A stretch of 64,000 bases of DNA. Origin: an uncultured Candidatus Saccharibacteria bacterium (lineage in GTDB: Bacteria; Patescibacteriota; Minisyncoccia; Phycocordibacterales; CAIJYI01). A program made the translations under genes and the position numbers. Position 1 is the stretch's first letter; every line of letters begins with the position of its first letter. The DNA lies in contig CAYPFT010000001.1 in the NCBI GenBank assembly GCA_964410165.1, positions 38,341-102,340 of the forward strand, written 5' to 3'. The notes beneath the pieces were generated by a model that was not told the origin of the DNA, did not search any database, and was given only the letters and a program-made list of their open reading frames with translations. This document shows, one piece after another, positions 2,686 through 62,491 of this stretch.

Positions 2686-3489
2686 ATGAGTAAGCGAACA
2701 GTAATTGTGAGCGGCGCAAGCCGCGGAGTTGGTGCTGAGATTGCCAAGCTTTTGGGAATGTCGGACTGGAATGTGGTCATTTTTGGTAAAACCGATATGC
2801 CGCATCGGATACTTCCGGGTACGATACATTCGGTCGCGGCTGAAATAAAAGCCGCCGGCGGGAGCGTTCTTGCCCTTAAAGTGGACGTGCGTTTTGAAGA
2901 CCAAGTAAGAAATGCGGTAGAGGAGGTCGTTAAGACTTTCGGCGGAATAGACGCTCTCATCAACAATGCGAGTGCGCTTCCTTTTGACGGGTCGGAAAAA
3001 CAGCTTCAGTTGGTGTACGATGTCATCGTGAATGGCACGCGTTTTTGTACGGAGGCGTGCCTGCCATACCTGCAAAAATCTGACAGTCCGCATGTCATCA
3101 ACATCGCCCCGCCGCTTCCGATGGCAGAACACTGGATTGAAAAATACGGGACGTACGCGAAAGCGAAACGCACCGTAAGCAAATATACGGATGTACTGGC
3201 AGAGCTCTACCCGAACATATCTTTTTCCGCGGTGTGGTTCATGAAGATGCTTCTGACTTTGGCCACTATTTTCGGCGTTTTTAAGAGTCGGGAAAAAGCA
3301 GAGAAACATACTCGAAACCCGGTAATAGCGGCGGATTCGGTAAAGTTGTTGCTGGACAACGGGCGGAATGACAAAATATTTTGGACGGACGAAGAAGTCC
3401 TTCAAAAATTGGGCGGCGTAACTGATTTTAGCCGCTACTTAAACCCCGGTTCCAAAGAAGAAGATTTGATGGACGATGTGTTTGTCTAA
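2686..3489 (+). CDS. Short-chain dehydrogenase/reductase (SDR) family oxidoreductase
   Basis: N-terminal VIVSGASRGVGAEIAKLL glycine-rich NAD(P)-binding motif, 267 aa. RBS GAGAGGTGA before the ATG. Confidence 0.8.
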   Translation: MSKRTVIVSGASRGVGAEIAKLLGMSDWNVVIFGKTDMPHRILPGTIHSVAAEIKAAGGSVLALKVDVRFEDQVRNAVEEVVKTFGGIDALINNASALPFDGSEKQLQLVYDVIVNGTRFCTEACLPYLQKSDSPHVINIAPPLPMAEHWIEKYGTYAKAKRTVSKYTDVLAELYPNISFSAVWFMKMLLTLATIFGVFKSREKAEKHTRNPVIAADSVKLLLDNGRNDKIFWTDEEVLQKLGGVTDFSRYLNPGSKEEDLMDDVFV

Positions 3490-3498
3490 TGAGTAAGT

Positions 3499-3669
3499 TA
3501 CCTTACGCACGATGGGAAAGATTTGGTCGGTGAGTCCGCCCTTTTGGCGGTCTCTCCGCCAAATCTTCCGCTTCCGACGCTCTATTTTGGCGGTTCCACC
3601 GCCAAGAGGCGGAGAAACCGACCAAAATTCTACGCCGAAACCGTACGGTATCACAATCATGCGTAAGGT
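3499..3669 (+). mobile_element. Family-1 MITE, copy A (~171 bp, TIR ...cttacgcac / gtgcgtaag...)
   Basis: The termini taccttacgcacgatgggaaagatttggtcggtgagtcc and ggagaaaccgaccaaaattctacgccgaaaccgtacggtatcacaatcatgcgtaaggt are shared with the copies at 24838-25063, 33308-33535 and 38280-38405. Confidence 0.7.
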
Positions 3670-5388: not shown

Positions 5389-6345
5389 TTACCTCCTCTC
5401 ATCAAGAGCGTTTCGCATGGCGGAGATGACCTCAAAGAGATCCCCGACGAATCCGATATCCGCGATTTCAAATATCGCGGCTTTCGGGTCTTTGTTTACG
5501 GCAATAATCGTACCGGCATCTTTTATGCCTGCACAATGCTGGGGCGCTCCGGAAATCCCGAAAGCGATGTAGATTTGCGGAGCGATGGTTTTCCCCGATT
5601 GTCCGACTTGGCAGTCATTCGGTATGAAGCCCAAATCTACCGCAACGCGCGATGCTCCGACGGCGGCTCCAAGCTTCTCCGCCAATTGGAAGAGAAGCTT
5701 GAAATTTTCTTTACTGCCGACCCCGGCTCCGCCTGAGACGACAATGCGCGCCGATTGAAGTTCCGGTCTTCCGCTCGCTTCGCTTTTTTCGAGCGAGAGG
5801 AAACGAGTGTGATTCGGTATCGTTGAAACGCGCTCAAGCATGAGTATCTTTGCATCGCCGGTTCGCGCGACTTCTTTGAAAGATGCCATTCGAACCGTTC
5901 CGCACACATACGGCGCACAAACTTCGGTTGTTACAATGCAATTTTCCGCATATGCCGGATTTTCAAACACTCTCGAATCCACCACGCGCATGATGTTGCT
6001 CACTTGCGGGACGCCGAGAAGCGCCGCCACTCGCGGCAGAAGATCCTTCCCGAAAGAAGTTCCGGGAGCGAAGATGTGGCTATAGTTAAGCGCAAGAAAT
6101 ACGGAAACGATTTCCGGCGCAAAAATATTTGCCACAGGATGGGCATGGGCATTGTCTCTGATTACAAAAACCGATTCCGCGCATTCAAGCATCGCGGCTT
6201 GTTTTCCGAGAGAGTCTGCGTTTTCAGGAGTGGCAAATACCGCAATGCCGACTGTTTCCGCCGCTTCATGGGCGCAGGCGACCGTTCTTGCCGTACTTCC
6301 GTTAAGCGTTATGCCGTCATGTTCGGCGATTACAAAAGCTTTCAT
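5389..6345 (-). CDS. etfA: Electron transfer flavoprotein alpha subunit
   Basis: 318 aa, MKAFVIAEH..., with FAD-binding C-terminal region (SGAPQHCAGIKD...). Lies between etfB and ETF-QO. Confidence 0.85.
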   Translation of the reverse strand: MKAFVIAEHDGITLNGSTARTVACAHEAAETVGIAVFATPENADSLGKQAAMLECAESVFVIRDNAHAHPVANIFAPEIVSVFLALNYSHIFAPGTSFGKDLLPRVAALLGVPQVSNIMRVVDSRVFENPAYAENCIVTTEVCAPYVCGTVRMASFKEVARTGDAKILMLERVSTIPNHTRFLSLEKSEASGRPELQSARIVVSGGAGVGSKENFKLLFQLAEKLGAAVGASRVAVDLGFIPNDCQVGQSGKTIAPQIYIAFGISGAPQHCAGIKDAGTIIAVNKDPKAAIFEIADIGFVGDLFEVISAMRNALDERR

Positions 6346-10133: not shown

Positions 10134-12362
10134 ATGTACCCTGAAATTAAAACAAAAGTAGTCAAAAACCTTGGCGTTTTGACTTTGGAACCGGAAAATA
10201 ATGCATTGTCCGTTGACTTTCTCAAGGCGCTCGCCGGAGAATACGTCGAAATGGCGAACACTTCGGGTACGGATGCCACCATGCTCATGATGAAACGGAT
10301 GATTGTCGGGATGGATATCAAGGCAATTCTCGCGTTCATGGAATCCCGCGATCGCGAGCATGTTGACGAGTTCCTTTCGTTTGTCCATCGCGACTTAATC
10401 ACGGCATTCGCCGAGTCCGGGAAGCCCGTGATTGCGGCTTTGCAGGGATCGCATATCCTTGGCGGCGGACTTGAGCTCGTTCTGCCATGCCACATCATCG
10501 CCGATAAAGCGACAAGCATCGGGCTGGTGGAAAGCGGAATCGGGCTTTTCCCCGGATATATGGGAATTTTCTCAATGATGAAGAGAATCGGGGTGCGGAA
10601 AACGCTTGAGCATGTCCTTGCCGGAGATTTCATTCCGGCTCACCGCGCCTTTGAAGAGGGGATCATTGATTGCATCGCGGACACGGATTTTTCAAATACT
10701 GTGTTCGCATTTGCCGCCGATGTTTTGGAGGGAAGATTTGTGAAGCAATCGCACATTCTTATCCCCGAAGAAGCGAACTCTCTCTCGGAAGAAGAGATTT
10801 TGCGGCTCGCAAACGGAAAACCGGCGGAACTCGTGCAGGCGATAATTGATGCCGTTCGCGCTATCGCTTCAAGACCTACTTCAGTCGAGGCGTCTCTTGC
10901 GGAACGCGAGCGATTCTTGGATGTTTTCTTTTCTCGCTATGCCGGAGAATTTGTTTTGGCGTTCCTTGAAGGAAAGCGCAAACCAAAGTGGGATAATGTC
11001 ATCGGCGGGAATAAGAATATCGCCGCTTCCGTTGAAGTATTGCCAAGCGTTGTAGCGGAAATTCCGCCGTGGGAAAAAGAAGAGTTTAGCGATGCCCGCA
11101 CAGCGGTACGCGAATTTGTGAAAGAGAGAATTCTCGCGAACGAGAAGGATCTCCAAACAGACACTGCCGCGATTACGGAAATACTTCAGCATATGCATGA
11201 GTGTGGCGCGACCGGCTCGAAATTTCCCGAAGACAAATTGACGGAAATCCAACGCGCCCTACGAAAGGCGATGGAAACGAACGAGCCGTTGGTCAAAAAA
11301 ATCGTTTCTGAAATGTTTGACCTCGGGTTCTTCAGTGTCCAGTTTGCCGAACAGTACGGTGGCATGGGAATGGGCATGGTTGGAGCATGCATGGTGGCGC
11401 AAGAGATTGCCTACGGAGATCCGGCAATCGGCATCATCGTCGGCGCACATGCGTGTCTCTTTTCGGGACCGATTGCCGCTTACGGAACAGAAGACCAAAA
11501 GGAACGGTATCTGGTTCCCGGCATGCGCGGAGAATTCTTGGGCGGGCTTGCATCTACCGAGCCGCATGGGGGTTCAAATCCGGCGGGGAAACAGGCGCTT
11601 GCGCTGAAAGTTTCCGGCGGATGGGAAATAACGGGCAGATACTCGTTTATCTCAAACGGCAGAACGGCGCGGTATCTGCTCGTCTATGCGCAGACAGATA
11701 AGGACGCGCTTGAAGATGAGGCGCTCGCCAAGAGGACCATGGGAGCATTCATCGTGGATACGAAGAGCCCAGGATTTCTCGCCTACCCCGACGAAGACAA
11801 AGGGGGGCTCCTTGCTTCGTGTACCAACGGATTGTCGCTTGACTCAGTGTTCGTTCCCGAAAAAGATGTGCTTTCAATCGGGGTTGGAAATTCGGAAGGA
11901 TACAAGACTATGATGGAAACTTTCAACTGCGGCCGGATTATGCTTGCCGCCGCCAATGTCGGCGGGATACAAGCCGGTATTGATGAAGTGCTGAAATTCG
12001 CGACAACGAGAATGATTGGCGGCGGGCGGAAAATGTATGAGTCCGAATCCATTCTTGAAGAAATCGGAAACATGCGAGAACGGTTGGAAGTGCTGAAGAG
12101 AGCTGTGTATGCGACGGCATGGGAAGCCGACCGCGGCATGGACATACGCGTAAGCGCCGCCGCCGTGAAGACACTCGGTACTGATATGACACAGGATGTG
12201 CTCAAACTGGGTAGACAGCTCATGGGCGGTGCCGGTTTTATGAAGAGCAGAATGTGGAAGATGAACATTGACTTCGCCGTGTGGGACACATTTGAAGGTC
12301 CGAAGAAAAGAATCAACACCTTCATCGGCGTGCAGACGGTAATAGATTATACGCGCAGGTAA
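10134..12362 (+). CDS. Fusion protein: enoyl-CoA hydratase/isomerase (crotonase) N-terminal domain plus acyl-CoA dehydrogenase C-terminal domain
   Basis: 742 aa. N-terminal half has crotonase-fold motifs (ALQGSHILGGGLELVLPCHIIADKATSIGLVESGIGLFPGYMG). C-terminal half is ACAD-like (MVAQEIAYGDP..., GGLASTEPHGGSNPAG, ITGRYSFISNG, QLMGGAGFM). Confidence 0.75.
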   Translation: MYPEIKTKVVKNLGVLTLEPENNALSVDFLKALAGEYVEMANTSGTDATMLMMKRMIVGMDIKAILAFMESRDREHVDEFLSFVHRDLITAFAESGKPVIAALQGSHILGGGLELVLPCHIIADKATSIGLVESGIGLFPGYMGIFSMMKRIGVRKTLEHVLAGDFIPAHRAFEEGIIDCIADTDFSNTVFAFAADVLEGRFVKQSHILIPEEANSLSEEEILRLANGKPAELVQAIIDAVRAIASRPTSVEASLAERERFLDVFFSRYAGEFVLAFLEGKRKPKWDNVIGGNKNIAASVEVLPSVVAEIPPWEKEEFSDARTAVREFVKERILANEKDLQTDTAAITEILQHMHECGATGSKFPEDKLTEIQRALRKAMETNEPLVKKIVSEMFDLGFFSVQFAEQYGGMGMGMVGACMVAQEIAYGDPAIGIIVGAHACLFSGPIAAYGTEDQKERYLVPGMRGEFLGGLASTEPHGGSNPAGKQALALKVSGGWEITGRYSFISNGRTARYLLVYAQTDKDALEDEALAKRTMGAFIVDTKSPGFLAYPDEDKGGLLASCTNGLSLDSVFVPEKDVLSIGVGNSEGYKTMMETFNCGRIMLAAANVGGIQAGIDEVLKFATTRMIGGGRKMYESESILEEIGNMRERLEVLKRAVYATAWEADRGMDIRVSAAAVKTLGTDMTQDVLKLGRQLMGGAGFMKSRMWKMNIDFAVWDTFEGPKKRINTFIGVQTVIDYTRR

Positions 12363-22806: not shown

Positions 22807-23631
22807 TTACAGAGAACAGACAACGACACGCCATCGGTCGAACTGGTCTTTCCAAAACTCCGTGCGGAAAGGGGAGAAGGCGGAGAGTTTTTTAATCTCT
22901 TCTTTTTGCCATGAGTCAAATTCAATGAACAGTTTGCCTCCATGGGCGAGGAATTGCGGGGCTTCAGCAAGGAGTTTTTTTATGTAAAACAATCCGTCGT
23001 CTTCGGCAAACAGCGCACCGTCCGGTTCGTAGTTGAGGACGGATTTTTGGACGGCTTCAATTTTCGCGCGGGAGATATAGGGCGGGTTCGCAAAGATAAA
23101 GTTATATTTTTTTGGTGAGATATTCTTGAAAACGTCTGATGTAAAAACCCGCGCACGTTTATGGTCAATATTGTTGAGAGCTAGATTTTTTTCTATTTGC
23201 GCTACAAAGGCAGGTTCTTTTTCTCCGAAGTCTACGGTCGCTGTCAAGAGGTGTTTTAAGAGAGCGATACCAATACAGCCGGAGCCGGAAAAAATGTCGA
23301 GAATTCGGAGGCTTCTCCACCTCTTTAGAGGGGAGTCCGCCAGCTGGCGGAGAGAGGGGGTGGTTTCTTTCACCCCACCCGGCCTCCCCTCTGAAGAGGG
23401 GAGGAGGACGTCGACTACGGCTTTTTCTACCCACCACTCTGTTTCTGTCCGGGGAATAAGCGGGCGGGAAGAGAGGTCGATTTTGCACCCTAAAAACTCA
23501 AAAAAACCGATAAGGTAATCTATCGGTTCTCCTGATTCAAGGCACTTCACGCCTTCGAAGAATTCGGGGGTTTTTTGTCCGCCGTACTTTTCGCGAAGCA
23601 ACCATTCTGTTTCTTTGGCGTAATTATTCAA
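22807..23631 (-). CDS. prmC: Release-factor glutamine methyltransferase PrmC/HemK, containing a ~32-codon in-frame repeat insertion
   Basis: NPPY motif (FIFANPPYI), SAM motif ILDIFSGSGCIGIAL. The segment LLPSSEGRPGGVKETTPSLRQLADSPLKRWRS is encoded by DNA shared with the MITE at 43891-44234. Confidence 0.75.
   Translation of the reverse strand: MNNYAKETEWLLREKYGGQKTPEFFEGVKCLESGEPIDYLIGFFEFLGCKIDLSSRPLIPRTETEWWVEKAVVDVLLPSSEGRPGGVKETTPSLRQLADSPLKRWRSLRILDIFSGSGCIGIALLKHLLTATVDFGEKEPAFVAQIEKNLALNNIDHKRARVFTSDVFKNISPKKYNFIFANPPYISRAKIEAVQKSVLNYEPDGALFAEDDGLFYIKKLLAEAPQFLAHGGKLFIEFDSWQKEEIKKLSAFSPFRTEFWKDQFDRWRVVVCSL
23325..23415. repeat. Family-2 MITE-derived fragment inserted in frame inside prmC
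   Basis: A 31-bp block ggggagtccgccagctggcggagagaggggg is identical to 44144-44174. Its neighbour cccctctgaagaggggaggaggacgtcg matches 44030-44056 with 3 mismatches. Confidence 0.65.
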
Positions 23632-23632
23632 A

Positions 23633-23989
23633 TTAGGCTGCTGTTTCTACTACTTTTGCAAACACTTCCGGATGAAATTCCGCGAGTTCGGCGAGCATTT
23701 TTCGGTTGAGGGAGATTTCTTTCTTTTTGAGTGCGCCGATGAGTTTGCTGTAAGAGGAAATTTTTTCATTTCCAAGAGCGCGGATGCCGGCATTAATCTT
23801 GATGTTCCATAATCGGCGGAAGTCGCCTTTTTTGTCGCGGCGGTGAGCGAAAGCATGAGAGCCGGCATGAACGATGGCGTCATACGCTTGGCGTTCTTTT
23901 GTGCTTCGGCCGAAGCGATACCCCTTCGTCTGCTTCAAGACGTTCTTTCTGGTTTTATTGGCGATGGTTCCTCGTTTTACGCGTGTCAT
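23633..23989 (-). CDS. rplT: 50S ribosomal protein L20
   Basis: MTRVKRGTIANKTRKNVLKQTKGYRFGRSTKERQAY... is a typical L20. Confidence 0.95.
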   Translation of the reverse strand: MTRVKRGTIANKTRKNVLKQTKGYRFGRSTKERQAYDAIVHAGSHAFAHRRDKKGDFRRLWNIKINAGIRALGNEKISSYSKLIGALKKKEISLNRKMLAELAEFHPEVFAKVVETAA

Positions 23990-24762: not shown

Positions 24763-24837
24763 TTGAAAATAAATATGCCTCATTCCGGGCAGGTGAAAAC
24801 ATACTAACAAATCCGGAGTCTTTTGGCAAATAAATAA

Positions 24838-25063
24838 CTCACCTTACGCACGACTGGAAAGATTTGGTCGGTGAGTCCACCACAAGAGTACTTCCATTTT
24901 CTAATCGCTTCGCTCAAGAAAATTAGGTCGCTCCTCTTGGAGGTCTCACCGCCAAATCTTTGACTTTCAGCGTTCGATTTTGGCGGTTTCACCTCCAAGA
25001 GGAGGAGAAACCGACCAAAATTTATGCCGAAGCCGTATGTTGTCGCAACTGTGCGTAAGTCCT
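24838..25063 (+). mobile_element. Family-1 MITE, copy B (~226 bp)
   Basis: tcaccttacgcacgactggaaagatttggtcggtgagtcc ... ggagaaaccgaccaaaatttatgccgaagccgtatgttgtcgcaactgtgcgtaagtcct. Lies between infC and a hypothetical gene. Confidence 0.7.
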
Positions 25064-25110
25064 AATAAAAAAGCCAGCACCTTTCATGGTGTGGCTTTTG
25101 CGATATGGCG

Positions 25111-33285: not shown

Positions 33286-33307
33286 CTCGCAATGCTCGAA
33301 ACTTGAA

Positions 33308-33535
33308 TAGGACTTACGCACTGTTGCGACAGCGTACGGTTTCGGCGAGGAATTTTGGTCGGTTTCTCCGCCTCTTGGCGGTGGAACCGCCAAAATTCAG
33401 CGCTGAAATCGAAGATTTGGCGGAGAGACCGCCAAAAGGGCGCGACCTGATTTTCTTGAGCGAAGCGATTAGAAAATGGAAGTACCCGTGTGGCAGACTC
33501 ACCGACCAAATCTTTCCCCAGTGCGTAAGTCCTAT
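33308..33535 (-). mobile_element. Family-1 MITE, copy C (~228 bp, inverted relative to copies A and B), ending 9 nt before the tatD start
   Basis: taggacttacgcactgttgcgacagcgtacggtttcggcgaggaattttggtcggtttctcc ... gactcaccgaccaaatctttccccagtgcgtaagtcctat. Confidence 0.7.
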
Positions 33536-33543
33536 TGAATATC

Positions 33544-41233: not shown

Positions 41234-43381
<2,148 letters not shown>

Positions 43382-43817: not shown

Positions 43818-43890
43818 GATATTTCTCCAACAAAGAACGGATGTTGTTCAAGTATAAGTAAATCATTTTTTGTTGGCTTTGTCAATCTTT

Positions 43891-44234
43891 TGACAAGTAA
43901 GTTCTCACACCCCACCCCAATCCTCCCTTACAGGGACTGTACACCTTTTGGACTTTTTGTTTCCCCGCCGGCTGGCGGGTCACAAAAATCCTCAAAAGGT
44001 CTTGCGGAACGGGTCCCTGCCCATTCCTCACCCTCTAAAGAGGGGAGGAGGCACGACGGTTGGCGTCCTTACCGCATGGGCACTTCCAATTTTATACTCC
44101 TTTCAGTCGTTAAAATTTAGGTCGCTCCCCCTTTTCAAAGGGGGAGTCCGCCAGCTGGCGGAGAGAGGGGGTTCGTGTGTAATATCGCTCTGTACAGTAA
44201 AGATATTTTTGGGGTGTGAGGACTTACTTTGACA
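43891..44234. mobile_element. Family-2 MITE (~344 bp) with ~25-bp terminal inverted repeats ttgacaagtaagttctcacacccc / ggggtgtgaggacttactttgacaa
   Basis: Perfect inner TIR ctcacacccca/tggggtgtgag. Internal palindromes ccgccggctggcggg and ccgccagctggcgg. Shares a 31-bp block with the prmC insert. Confidence 0.65.
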
Positions 44235-44257
44235 AAAATGTCAAGGACGGGTATCAT
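44229..44257 (+). promoter_or_regulatory. Promoter TTGACA-N17-TATCAT whose -35 lies inside the MITE right TIR; the start codon is 6 nt after the -10 (leaderless)
   Basis: ttgacaaaaatgtcaaggacgggtatcat gggtgt ATG(44264). Confidence 0.45.
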
Positions 44258-44263
44258 GGGTGT

Positions 44264-44577
44264 ATGAAAACACTCAAAAAAGAAACTTCAACCGAATATT
44301 CGTTTACTGTCATATACGAGCCGGTAAAGGGTGGCGGGTATCAGATAACCGTACCGGTTTTACCGGGCGTTATTTCGTACGGGCGGGATATTGAAGAAGC
44401 CAAAAAAATGACCCGACGATTCGATTGATTGATAAAAATGGCATTCATCCGCCGCATTCGCTCAACGCTCAAACTGTCGACGAGGCGGTATATTTTTTGG
44501 ATCAATTTATGTCTGAATGCGAAACACAAGAGTTGCTTCCTTTCGACTACTTCACAAAGGAAGACAAGGTTAAGTAA
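44264..44577 (+). pseudogene. HicB-like antitoxin gene, apparently frameshifted at an A7 tract (44410-44416)
   Basis: N-terminus YSFTVIYEPVKGGGYQITVPVLPGVISYGRDIEEAKK matches the HicB N-domain. The frame stops at 44428, but a +1 shift in the A7 run opens a further 57 codons (NDPTIRLIDKNGIHPP...FTKEDKVK). Confidence 0.4.
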
Positions 44578-47229: not shown

Positions 47230-47503
47230 CCCTATAGCTAATTCTAGCATATGCCACTTAGCCGGATTAATTTGGTTGATAATCAACTCGGATTGCAGGT
47301 AATGTGCCTCGTACACCGGCTTCTTCTCTCCTCAAAACGAACGATTTTAAGCTCGCAACACGATGATTTCGCATGTATTTTTTTTATACACGCGAATTGT
47401 TTCAAAAAAACGAAAAAAATGCTTACGCTACCGAACTAAAACGACTACGCTATCAACCAAATTAATCCGGCTATTACGCATATGCTAGAATTAGCTATAG
47501 GGG
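47230..47503. mobile_element. Family-3 MITE (~274 bp) with ~50-bp terminal inverted repeats
   Basis: ccctatagctaattctagcatatgc ... gcatatgctagaattagctataggg (25/25 perfect), extended by ccggattaatttggttgata / tatcaaccaaattaatccgg. Confidence 0.7.
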
Positions 47504-51379: not shown

Positions 51380-51860
51380 AAACGGATATGCCAGTAAAAA
51401 CAAAAACCGACTGATGCCGGTTTTTGCGCCAAACTTGGTGGAGATGGGGGATCGGTCACAAGTATTTTTTCTGACAAAAAATCTTGCGACCCCGGCTCGC
51501 GGTTTTTGCCTTGTGCTTCGCACAAACAAAAACATCGCTGCGCCTTTCAATCCCCCCACGTGAGCAAAGCAGTTTGCTCACTCATCTCCACAACTCAAAA
51601 CAACAAACCGCCCTAAATCGGGCGGGTTGTTTTGGCTGTGGAGATGGGGGGAATCGGTCACAGATAAATTTTTGTTGCTACAAAAATTTTCCGCGACCCC
51701 ACCTCGGCTGTTTTGTCGCTTGCGAGCGATAAAACATGCCTGCGGTTTTCGATTCCCCACGGAAGCCAAGCAGTTGGCTTCCTCCATCTCCACCGAATTT
51801 TGGCAAAACAAAAACCGACTGATGCCGGTTTTTGCGCCAAAATTGGTGGAAACTAATGAA
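51380..51860. repeat. Array of degenerate repeats derived from the ssrA 3' end (old att remnants) plus 45-bp direct repeats
   Basis: tggagatggggg(g)a(a)tcggtcaca occurs at 51438 and 51643. Inverted ...catctccac... occurs at 51585 and 51784. ~110-bp diverged repeats lie at 51484-51595 and 51690-51800. The 45-bp direct repeat aaaacaaaaaccgactgatgccggtttttgcgccaaaNttggtgga lies at 51393 and 51804. Confidence 0.6.
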
Positions 51861-56000: not shown

Positions 56001-56343
56001 ATTTTTTATACTACAAGGGTTGTTTTATATTTGCAAGGGCGTAACGTATTTATGTAGGGTAGCTTATACATGAGTAAAAGTAAAGTCAAGAAAGCAGAAA
56101 GTGGAATTTTACTTTCAGGGGGGAAGGTAATACCATGTAAATACAACTGAATATCGTGCTCGAAAGAGCTAGGACCTAAACCAGTAGATTTGTCTCTGGC
56201 ATGGTCTCAAATCGTTGAGGATAGAAAACCCGTCATTCAGGGCGTCCTCAACGTTATAGGGGGAAACTCCTATAGGGCCGCAAGGCCTCCTGGTGGCGGG
56301 TTTTGTGTATCCCACCAGGAATTATCAATTAACAAAATTAGAT

Positions 56344-60508: not shown

Positions 60509-62200
60509 ATGGAAACAAAAACAAAACTTAGATATGTAGCGTATGCTCGTAAGTCGACTGACCAGGAAGAAAAACAAATCACTTCCATTGAAGATCAGTT
60601 GCGGGAAATTGAGCGGATAGGTGCTGATTGTCACATTACAAAGAAACTCACGGAAAAACGGACTGCTAAAACTCTGGGTCGTCCTGTTTTTGCTGAAATG
60701 TTGCAGTTGATTCTGGATAAGAAAGTAGACGGGATTGTTTGCTGGAAGCTGAATCGGTTAGCAAGAAATCCAATAGATGGAGGGCAGATAATCTGGATGT
60801 TGCAAAATGGGGTTATCAAAGAAATCAGGACTGATGATGGTATCTACACTCCAGAGAGTGACATGATAATGCTTCACATCCACTTCGGGATGGCTCATCA
60901 GTTCAGTTTGAATCTCAGTAAGGACATCAAGAGAGGTTTACAGGGTCGTCTTCGTGAGGGAGTTCGTCCAAGTATTGCTCCTATCGGGTACATAAACAGT
61001 CAGTATCACATCAAGAGGATGGAAGAAATCTTGGTTGATGAGGAGCGGTTCCCAAAAGTAAGAAAGTTATTCGATTTAATGCTTTCTGGACAATACTCTC
61101 CTCTCCAGTTGGTTGAGATTGCGGATAAGCAACTCCATCTGGAAACAAGGGGGACGAAGAAATGGCCGAGAAAAGCGATGAGTAAGTCAAATATGTATCG
61201 GGTTCTCACCAATCCTTTCTACTATGGGTCGTTCGAGTTTCCGGAGGGTAGCGGTGATTGGCATGTTGGTAAACATAAACCAATGATTACGGAAGAGGAG
61301 TATGACAAAATCCAATCTCTCCTTGGTCGTGAGGGTAGACCGAGACCGAAGACTCACATCTTTGCTTACACTGGATTGATGCGGTGTGCAGGTTGCCAGG
61401 CTCGCGTGACTGCTGAAGAAAAATGGAAACACCAACAGAATGGGAATAGTCACCATTACATCTACTATCGGTGTACGGGTAGTCAGGGTCCAGAGTGTTT
61501 GGAGAAGTCGGTTGAGGTGAAAGTTCTGGAAAAGCAAATTGATGAATTTCTCTCTAAGATTCAGATTCCACCAGAGTTCCATGAATGGGCTGTTGAGGAG
61601 TTGAAGAAACTCCATGAAAGAGAAAAGGGTGATAGGAACTCGCTGATTGTGAAGCATGAGCAGGACTATAAGGACTGTGTATTCAAGCTGGATCAGTTGA
61701 TGGAGCTTCGATTGGAGGGCAAGGTTTCGGATGAGATGTTCTCTCGGAAGGAATCACAACTCTTGAAGCAGAAAGCAGAATTGAAGAGATTGTCTGATGG
61801 AGATGATAAGAGAGTAGATGACTGGTTGGTTCGTCTTGAAAGCACTCTCACCTTTGCGGAGAGAGCCAGAGAGGAATTCCAAAAGGGTGATATTGCGAAG
61901 CGGAGGCAGATTCTTACTGCTTTGGGGACTGAGCATATCCTCAAAGACCGGGCAATCCACATCAATACGGAAAAACCACTCCTTGTACTTCAAGAAGTGG
62001 TTTCCGAGAGCAATCGTCTGTTAGATAAGTTAGAACCTCCCAAAAGTGTTGGAAACAATGGGCGGATTAAACAAATCTATGACAAAAGTTCATCAATGTG
62101 GAGATGGGGGGAATCGAACCCCCGTGCAAAAAGGAATTCTCGCTCCTTCTACAAACATAGATTATTTGTTTTTGGTTTAAGTGGAAAAAGTAAGGAATAA
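60509..62200 (+). CDS. Large serine recombinase (resolvase/invertase-type N-terminal domain plus recombinase and zinc-ribbon domains)
   Basis: YVAYARKSTDQEEKQITSIEDQ catalytic-serine motif. The recombinase domain (RPSIAPIGY) and CxxC...C zinc ribbon (RCAGCQA...YYRCTG...C) are both present. The 3' end reads through the ssrA terminus. Confidence 0.85.
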   Translation: METKTKLRYVAYARKSTDQEEKQITSIEDQLREIERIGADCHITKKLTEKRTAKTLGRPVFAEMLQLILDKKVDGIVCWKLNRLARNPIDGGQIIWMLQNGVIKEIRTDDGIYTPESDMIMLHIHFGMAHQFSLNLSKDIKRGLQGRLREGVRPSIAPIGYINSQYHIKRMEEILVDEERFPKVRKLFDLMLSGQYSPLQLVEIADKQLHLETRGTKKWPRKAMSKSNMYRVLTNPFYYGSFEFPEGSGDWHVGKHKPMITEEEYDKIQSLLGREGRPRPKTHIFAYTGLMRCAGCQARVTAEEKWKHQQNGNSHHYIYYRCTGSQGPECLEKSVEVKVLEKQIDEFLSKIQIPPEFHEWAVEELKKLHEREKGDRNSLIVKHEQDYKDCVFKLDQLMELRLEGKVSDEMFSRKESQLLKQKAELKRLSDGDDKRVDDWLVRLESTLTFAERAREEFQKGDIAKRRQILTALGTEHILKDRAIHINTEKPLLVLQEVVSESNRLLDKLEPPKSVGNNGRIKQIYDKSSSMWRWGESNPRAKRNSRSFYKHRLFVFGLSGKSKE

Positions 62201-62491
62201 TCAAAATCTTTCTCCACCCTAGCTTCTTTGTTTTGAAAATAAATCGAAGCGGTTTATATTTTCTATCCCGATTTGTATTACACCCGTATCCCACCCTCGG
62301 GAGAGGAGAGATAAAGACGCCGGTTTACGCTAAAGCGAATCCGGGATGAAAAGCAAAGTATGGTGATACAACGCTTTTCACCTTAGAAGAAAGTTTTGCA
62401 ACTATCAGTTTCCTGTGCGCTATAACGGGTGAACAGGAGTATCCGGTTTGCAAAGCGAGAAGACGACTTCTTGTCGAAGCCAGTCATCCCC
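62098..62491 (-). ncRNA. ssrA: tmRNA (SsrA)
   Basis: 5' end GGGGAUGACUGGCUUCGAC matches the tmRNA consensus. Acceptor pairing GGGGAUG/CAUCUCC carries G3:U70. T-arm GGGGGUUCGAUUCCCCC. Resume context GAUAGUU-GCA followed by a 24-codon tag ending FALA-UAA. Confidence 0.75.

Follow-up and report, generated by a model that had tools for sequence, protein, structure and literature searches.

About 100 nt of GC-rich palindromic DNA lie inside prmC, the gene for the release-factor glutamine N5-methyltransferase (HemK family), on a 64,000-nt segment of contig CAYPFT010000001.1 from an uncultured Candidatus Saccharibacteria bacterium; this whole segment is referred to here as the window. The insert is situated between the helix formed by residues 62-76 and strand β1 of the encoded enzyme. 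Very probably, it is a tail-to-tail pair of small, non-coding palindromic units similar to repetitive extragenic palindromic (REP) elements, resembling a REPIN (a REP doublet that forms a hairpin), in the loop that precedes β1. We denote the two units A and B. The ribosome would read through the stop-free, GC-rich insert, whose units have lengths that are multiples of three, and would thereby add a disordered loop of 29 residues rich in Pro, Gly, Ser and Arg. This loop would project from the face of the methyltransferase opposite the site for S-adenosylmethionine (SAM) and substrate, so that PrmC would stay functional.

The prmC insert and its two units

The peptide encoded by the insert, LLPSSEGRPGGVKETTPSLRQLADSPLKRWRS, corresponds to PrmC residues 76-107 and directly precedes LRILDIFSGSG. 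A first-pass annotation of the window had described an in-frame insert of 32 residues just upstream of the SAM-binding motif; the frame, the peptide and the position were all borne out. The linker between the helix and β1 comprises 34 residues, compared to 6 in E. coli PrmC (2B3T/1T43; between VEQALA and CRILDLGTGTG) and 8-10 in the nearest homologues, which come from Parcubacteria/Paceibacteria metagenomes, and the segment is confined to its lineage rather than being conserved PrmC sequence. The DNA of related prmC genes was retrieved and the linkers were compared codon by codon, giving a net gain over the orthologues of 29 residues (13 + 16 codons, 87 nt). The gain is counted as 29 and not 32 because the residues KETT between the units look like host linker.

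Two other prmC lineages are used for comparison, one represented by P0002 (protein) and L002 (DNA), the other by P0014-15 and L001; L107 is the sister genome of L001. Unit B (23371-23409, minus strand) is 39 nt or 13 codons long (VLLPSSEGRPGGV; sense strand GTCCTCCTCCCCTCTTCAGAGGGGAGGCCGGGTGGGGTG) and consists of a hairpin with a C/T-G/A stem of 9-10 bp, followed by the G-rich tail GGNNGGGTGGGGTG. Unit A (23311-23361, plus strand; ~48 nt, 16 codons) has the design that B shows on the opposite strand, except that a further 16-nt palindrome (TCCGCCAGCTGGCGGA) separates its hairpin (CTCCACCTCTTTAGAGGGGAG) from its G-rich tail (GAGAGGGGGT). The homology block of A covers 23315-23361; the 16 codons missing from P0002 (PSLRQLADSPLKRWRS) correspond to 23311-23358. 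Between the units lies the 12-nt KETT spacer (23359-23370, minus strand), which partly overlaps the tail of A and is homologous to the residues that follow B in L002 (EEST) and L001 (KEGT); to judge from its sequence, the spacer is probably original host linker.

A and B are discrete, separable units, since P0002 contains B and lacks exactly the 16 residues of A (in one gap-free BLASTP block), while the filled prmC of L001 differs from the empty prmC of its sister L107 by exactly the 13 codons of B. In the window, the whole inverted A-B pair (23311-23409) folds as one long, branched hairpin in which the hairpins of the two units pair with each other, as in a REPIN, with a folding energy of -60.8 kcal/mol as RNA (z = -3.9) and z = -4.1 as DNA. 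The GC content of the linker is 0.63, against 0.48 for the whole gene.

The frame encoded by the units contains no stop codon, both lengths being divisible by three, and the predicted peptide across the insert reads LLPSSEGRPGGVK...SPLKRWR, with AVVDVLLPSSEGRPGGVK and ETTPSLR as component peptides. Adaptation of the unit to be stop-free in all frames was considered and rejected: 4-6 of the 6 frames are open, which is no better than in composition-matched shuffles, so that the lack of stop codons follows from unit composition.

The ORF (open reading frame) at 22807-23631 (minus strand) encodes a HemK/PrmC protein whose catalytic and SAM motifs are intact, running without interruption through 274 codons from a TTG start. 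The protein scores above the cut-off for the family model TIGR00536 (hemK_fam; 129.6 vs. 115.5), below that for the equivalog TIGR03534 (169.8 vs. 199.1), and matches PF05175 with E = 1.7e-14. The motifs N182-P-P-Y185 and G116-S-G118, both invariant columns, are kept, and so are all the other columns (24 of 24 in total) that are invariant among 120 homologues. The ratio of nonsynonymous to synonymous substitution (dN/dS) relative to the closest relative is 0.14. An AlphaFold2 (AF2) model made with 43 homologues had a mean predicted local distance difference test (pLDDT) score of 91, with values of 53-71 only at residues 81-110 and at least 90 elsewhere; the low-confidence loop, formed by residues ~77-107, joins helix 62-76 to strand 109-113 (β1). 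Among solved structures, the model most closely matched 2b3t_A, the complex of PrmC with RF1 (template modelling (TM) score 0.81), and shows the two-domain PrmC fold. Given the kept invariant residues, this dN/dS and the matching fold, the remainder of the enzyme is probably functional despite the insert, as the first-pass annotation had thought possible. In Rossmann methyltransferases the N-terminal end of β1 lies on the face opposite the cofactor site, and a floppy loop there is for that reason plausibly harmless. We infer from sequence and model that the insert is translated into a disordered and harmless surface loop.

It could be argued that no such loop is made, either because prmC is a recent pseudogene or because the insert is removed or skipped by RNA processing or translational bypass. 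Hairpins as stable as those of the A-B pair could block ribosomes, and in yeast mitochondria GC-rich mobile hairpins are bypassed during translation. However, the 87 extra nucleotides, as 13 + 16 codons, preserve frame and length without a stop, and the frame is likewise kept around B-like units in seven other conserved genes (see below) and in all other prmC inserts. The full set of invariant residues and the dN/dS value also argue against decay, and the units are found in both orientations, contrary to what would be expected of an RNA mechanism specific to one strand. We therefore regard loss or bypass of the loop as extremely improbable.

Relation of the units to a 345-nt repeat in the window

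The first-pass annotation had derived the insert from a MITE (miniature inverted-repeat transposable element), the "family-2 MITE", located at 43890-44234 (plus strand). This element is 345 nt long, non-coding and bounded by 25-nt terminal inverted repeats (TTGWCAARGTAAGTYCTCACACCCC), and it folds with -76 kcal/mol (z = -8.1). On sequence grounds it is a genuine repeat family and plausibly a MITE, because its backbone recurs in L107 (6000-6104) and in metagenome contig L051 (12075-12376). Nested within it are a copy of unit A (44125-44172, plus strand), 46/48 identical to L051 2888-2935, and a degenerate B-like hairpin (44015-44059, plus strand) with a C-rich lead-in and the 3' end GGAGGAGGCACGACGG. 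A backbone segment of ~40 nt (AAAGGTCTTGCGGAACGGGTCCCTRCCCATTCCTCACC) is 95% identical between the window (43996-44033) and L051 (12339-12376), which are different genomes; the L107 counterpart, within 6000-6104, is more diverged.

The reported 31-bp identity between the two loci is real and amounts to 32/32 nt (23330-23361 and 44141-44172; 0 matches in 100 shuffles), the MITE coordinates having been about 3 nt off. A sensitive local alignment extended it to 23315-23361 versus 44125-44172 (43/48, E = 4e-10). The second block, originally placed at 44030-44056 and called near-identical, was recovered by local alignment between 23383-23413 and 44026-44058, but is weaker (29/33, 88%, E = 1e-3). 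Together with a short stretch at 23365-23380 that resembles the left terminal repeat of the MITE, the perfect match and the 88% match favor a scenario in which a piece of the 345-nt element was transposed or recombined into prmC and was kept since the frame was preserved.

This scenario is nevertheless largely refuted, and we find it very doubtful. The order of the blocks is reversed, A then B in prmC and B-like then A in the 345-nt element, and the spacing differs. The backbone copies in L107 and L051 contain neither unit A nor the B hairpin, while A-B pairs exist without any MITE backbone, in an intergenic position in L051 and within murB in L039. The B of prmC is far closer to B in other genomes (38/39 to that of L001) than to the B-like stretch of the element (29/33), and B also occurs in prmC of lineages that lack A. 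For these reasons, prmC and the 345-nt element appear both to have been colonized by the same small palindromic units. The first-pass suggestion that a repeat had been turned into coding sequence thus survives in part: the insert is repeat-derived, frame-preserving and lineage-specific, but its derivation from the MITE is not supported.

Searches of the window for other poly-pyrimidine or strong GC hairpins in ORFs returned essentially only these two loci. Neither the prmC insert nor the 345-nt element matched Rfam when the window was searched at the gathering threshold, and a search of 23250-23480 and 43850-44270 with E up to 10 gave only generic hairpin (miRNA-like) noise.

Several other features of the window were noted. 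The TTG start of prmC abuts the stop codon of rplT (23633-23989), and the gene order infC-rpmI-rplT-prmC-cupredoxin is alike in relatives. Hairpins of the form TTGGCGG...CCGCCAA constitute a separate repeat family with three intergenic copies (3481-3667, 24822-25070 and 33303-33541); one copy lies immediately upstream of infC, inside the prmC operon, and in L107 a related stretch comes after prmC. There are inverted repeats with 52-nt arms, 92% complementary and 169 nt apart (47230-47281 and 47451-47502), a 46-nt direct repeat pair (51397-51442 and 51805-51850), a LOOT RNA (56173-56288; 72.7 bits) and a transfer-messenger RNA (tmRNA; 62096-62491). A 94-nt tRNA-Lys(CTT) called by ARAGORN at 43210-43303 lies inside the EF-G ORF (41234-43381) and is probably a false positive.

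Unit B at the prmC site and across Patescibacteria

In the L002 and L001 lineages, prmC carries B only, as 39 nt of sequence GTCCTCCTCCCCTCTT(C/T)AGAGGGGAGGC(C/T)GGGTGGGGTG, and the offset of B within the gene (222-261) is identical in the window, L002 and L001. Across these three, B is 37-38/39 (95-97%) identical, while the genes are 63-75% identical and their third positions 42-55%. Between the window and L001, for example, 38/39 positions agree in B and 7/12 immediately upstream of it, with 62.6% identity over the whole gene and 41.5% at third positions; no more than a few bases beyond the B borders, identity is down to background. (L002 also has, at 2028-2058 in the 3' part of prmC, an in-frame hairpin with a 13-bp stem, CTGTCAATCCGCCAGCCGGCGGATTGACAG, encoding YCQSASRRIDS and replacing sequence found in the window.)

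A PrmC tree was calculated from 233 columns with the linker masked and 200 bootstraps. The window sequence grouped with P0002-P0013 in 96% of replicates, and P0014/15 with P0023/19 in 99.5%. In none of the 200 bootstraps did the four B-bearing sequences form a monophyletic group, and B is missing from most members of the two clades; P0025 contains a possible decayed remnant (VLLPSS...). Vertical inheritance of B as a neutral loop is, in its simple form, very unlikely on these sequence comparisons. Spread of B by transfer of a larger prmC segment was excluded, because identity is at background directly outside B. The shared site may thus reflect independent site-specific insertion, an old insertion followed by repeated seamless loss, or homogenization against other copies. 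Neither a target-site duplication nor a common flanking motif was detected in comparisons of filled and empty prmC sites or among the B loci.

Beyond prmC, B is a member of a family that is spread over Patescibacteria, often in frame within housekeeping genes. A scan for GAGGGGAGGNNGGGTGGGGTG with one genome per species returned 45 loci. Patescibacteria account for ~25 of these, including hits in Saccharibacteria, Paceibacterota, Microgenomates, Berkel-, Kerfeld- and Taylorbacteria, and almost every one has a matching 5' hairpin arm, with variable loops; the remaining matches are mostly chance hits in high-GC genomes. The complete hairpin is present in 20 copies (unit 35-39 nt, stem 9-10 bp, loop 3-5 nt). 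B-like units were found in frame in TopA, LepA, IleRS, KsgA, TsaD, TrxB and MurB, as identified by NCBIfam. In all seven genes the unit has hidden Markov model (HMM) matches on either side, forming a single stretch in five and two or three stretches in IleRS and MurB. The intragenic units occur in both orientations and in three frames, within long open frames, and the remaining copies lie between genes, at a distance of 12-90 nt from gene ends. In ksgA/rsmA of L033 (1303-2241), the unit (TPHPTSPHEGEES) directly precedes the GPGxG SAM motif and occupies the structural position that it also has in PrmC.

Pairs collinear with the prmC insert were found twice: in frame in murB of Parcubacteria GW2011_GWA2_49_9 (L039), where the 16-nt palindrome is missing, and between genes in L051, where the pair is bounded by inverted CGTCGT/ACGACG ends. 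The CGTCGT sequence lies beside the hairpin in L051, the 345-nt element and L002, takes a degenerate form in the window (GACGTC) and in L001, and is absent from most other copies in Patescibacteria. A strict-pattern scan gave 1-3 B matches per species genome. Viral contigs and phage records contained no match to B, and the plasmid scan produced just three weak intergenic look-alikes from Deinococcus. Motifs consisting of a hairpin and GGCTGGG(A/T)GGGG(G)TGA, similar to unit B, stand just downstream of genes in L100 (a plasmid of Deinococcus aetherius; 290-340), L101 (300-340) and L022/L048 (Acinetobacter); these look-alikes, from a megaplasmid in the case of Deinococcus, may be homologous or convergent. 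For unit A, a metagenome scan with its core gave 51 loci, almost all belonging to an unrelated palindromic family of ~100 nt that has nothing but the 25-nt core in common with A; the sole true relative is L051, perhaps joined by L069. The unrelated family is abundant in metagenome contigs L049-L099 (GC 0.38-0.48) and has the form CATGTACTCACCCCC ... CCCCCTCTTTCCGCC-NNNN-GGCGGAGAGAGGGGG ... GGGGGTGAGTACATG.

The loop before β1 of PrmC is a permissive hot spot that has been colonized repeatedly. Linker length has a median of 19 residues over the 115 PrmC homologues in which both flanking motifs are present, and it reaches at least 27 in 24 of them, with many insert sequences mutually unrelated. 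Four other inserts were read as DNA, and three of them are palindromic or MITE-like: that of L103 has 27-bp inverted arms (-64 kcal/mol), that of L102 several hairpins and that of L105 long-range inverted ends. The fourth, in L104, is not markedly palindromic (-35.6 kcal/mol). Close relatives that have neither A nor B contain, in the same loop, the perfect 21-nt palindrome TTTGGACATCSGATGTCCAAA, which encodes FGHxMSK (L003 9076-9825, L106 6-671 and L102 3001-3894), in L102 in addition to its multi-hairpin insert of 45 residues.

The recurrence at one prmC site raises the question of whether B is targeted or functional, that is, a site-specific element homing to loops, or a hairpin/G-tract signal (for ribosome pausing between domains, or a mark on the DNA) whose sequence is held by selection. 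The shared offset in three non-monophyletic lineages, where identity rises from ~60-75% to 95-97% right at the edges of the unit, would be consistent with this, as would the core conserved across classes of Patescibacteria despite low copy number, the unit in the analogous loop of KsgA, another Rossmann methyltransferase, and one compensatory change that keeps the A hairpin paired between the two window copies of A. However, most close relatives lack B, and its occurrence in both orientations, three frames and intergenic positions speaks against a function that depends on a single RNA strand. In addition, no common target motif or duplication flanks it, unrelated inserts share the loop, as mere tolerance predicts, and its open-frame content is no better than that of shuffles. 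We accordingly consider targeting or function to be quite unlikely.

A broader version of this idea is that the 35-39-nt hairpin-plus-G-tract unit constitutes a single ancient and still active family, Patescibacteria-wide with look-alikes in Deinococcus and Acinetobacter, that inserts and excises seamlessly at preferred sites in essential genes, or that it is maintained because the hairpin or G-tract acts, by pausing between domains or as a DNA-level signal. Although we judge it unlikely, such a seamless, site-preferring unit would, if real, explain why the same prmC nucleotide is occupied in unrelated lineages at 95-97% identity. The class-wide conservation and the identical-site recurrence are unusual and keep this more novel reading open. 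The B units at one site in non-monophyletic prmC genes also provide a concrete case for comparing site-specific insertion with seamless excision.

Mobilization and comparison with known palindromic repeats

If the insert is an A-B pair of REP-like units, as we propose, the units probably move or become homogenized at the DNA level. The most economical history would have B, which is common to other lineages, arriving first and A inserting beside it; alternatively, the whole pair may have been inserted at once. A candidate for the mover, as a hypothesis only, is a single-strand Y1 transposase that recognizes hairpins, of the type found in IS200/IS605 insertion sequences (IS) and in REP-associated tyrosine transposases (RAYTs). 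Y1 transposases of this type excise and insert seamlessly and make no target duplications, which would account for the filled and empty sites observed. Conversion between unit copies is an alternative to transposition.

RAYT-like Y1 transposase genes do occur in the related Parcubacteria L107 and L039. The gene in L107, a Parcubacteria metagenome-assembled genome, is at 11221-11889 (minus strand) and encodes a 222-aa Y1_Tnp protein with the motifs NHFH and RYVERNPLRAKLV; 21-nt inverted repeats are located at 11213-11233 and 11922-11943. It lies two genes downstream of prmC and is absent at the syntenic site in the sister genome L001. A second Y1_Tnp homologue, in L039 (1970-2540, minus strand), has GACGAGGCTCAACCTCGTC hairpins on both sides (1824-1864 and 2570-2589) in a REPtron-like arrangement, 2 kb from the murB gene that bears the A-B pair.

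Several observations weigh against the proposed explanation. Both RAYT-like genes are flanked by repeats other than A and B, so that no transposase is linked to the units, and a tblastn search found no Y1_Tnp in the window. The window contains only two loci with four units, a low number unlike that of classic REPs, which have tens to hundreds of mostly extragenic copies per genome. Only a sub-family bears the CGTC-type end tag, and the window copy has it in degenerate form. The identical offset of B in prmC lineages that were never monophyletic in the bootstraps is left without an explanation. Both orders of events, B then A, or insertion of the pair followed by loss of A elsewhere, are possible. 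Finally, we infer translation through the insert solely from the intact frame.

In-frame palindromic repeats in essential genes have so far been mainly a curiosity of Rickettsia. No description of such repeats in the Candidate Phyla Radiation (CPR)/Patescibacteria was found in the searchable literature, and these bacteria go unmentioned in a review of prokaryotic MITEs from 2024. The units described here extend this behavior to the CPR, with a unit recognizable across several classes. Such inserts make proteins longer and depress HMM scores, as with PrmC, which does not reach its equivalog cut-off, and they can mislead the annotation and phylogeny of the CPR. They also amount to natural "loop-insertion scans" of essential enzymes.

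Rickettsia palindromic elements (RPEs) and intragenic REPs are small palindromes, present singly or as inverted dimers, that lengthen conserved proteins by 13-30 residues, and the short RPE-4 and RPE-6 types are CGTC-tagged REPs (PMC3733652; PMC10969869). The prmC units are alike in being small palindromic repeats in frame in conserved housekeeping genes of a bacterium with a reduced genome. Here, too, single units and inverted dimers coexist, encode ~13-30 residues and have no dedicated transposase known, and the extra loops, predicted to be translated, are compatible with the fold in PrmC as in TopA, LepA, IleRS, KsgA, TsaD, TrxB and MurB. In contrast to the RPEs, which were compared by description, they occur in another phylum, with no sequence relationship apparent; they carry a CGTC-like tag only in a sub-family, and their core is conserved across whole classes at an apparently low copy number. 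The stems of CGTC REPs have A-T pairs at positions 1-2 and a short CCA tail follows (PMC3733652), whereas the stem of the prmC unit is C/T-G/A rich, without A-T pairs at these positions, and the tail is conserved and G-rich.

REP and REPIN elements are mobilized by RAYT tyrosine transposases (PMC3116915, PMC3337134). The prmC units share with them the short, imperfect palindromes, the inverted doublets that form a long hairpin, the coexistence of singlets and doublets, the copies near gene ends and the RAYT-like Y1 genes in related genomes. They differ in that no RAYT flanked by A or B was found, the units lack a GTAG head, the copy number in the window is very low, many copies are intragenic, and the sequence is common to very distant lineages, while REPINs are typically lineage-specific and vertically inherited. 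Bacterial MITEs, which are derived from IS and bounded by terminal inverted repeats (Correia/NEMIS, ERIC and RUP are examples), resemble the pair as non-coding elements of ~100 nt with inverted ends, and MITEs can make in-frame fusions; however, no target-site duplication and no related autonomous IS were found for the prmC pair, and its "terminal repeats" are themselves self-complementary hairpins. Membership in the GTAG or CGTC REP super-families, or among RAYT-driven REPINs, is not established, because the units do not carry a consistent head tag, depart in stem and tail from the published CGTC description, and are apparently few in number, and because no cognate RAYT turned up. Of the known kinds, the intragenic REP/RPE elements are closest to the prmC pair.

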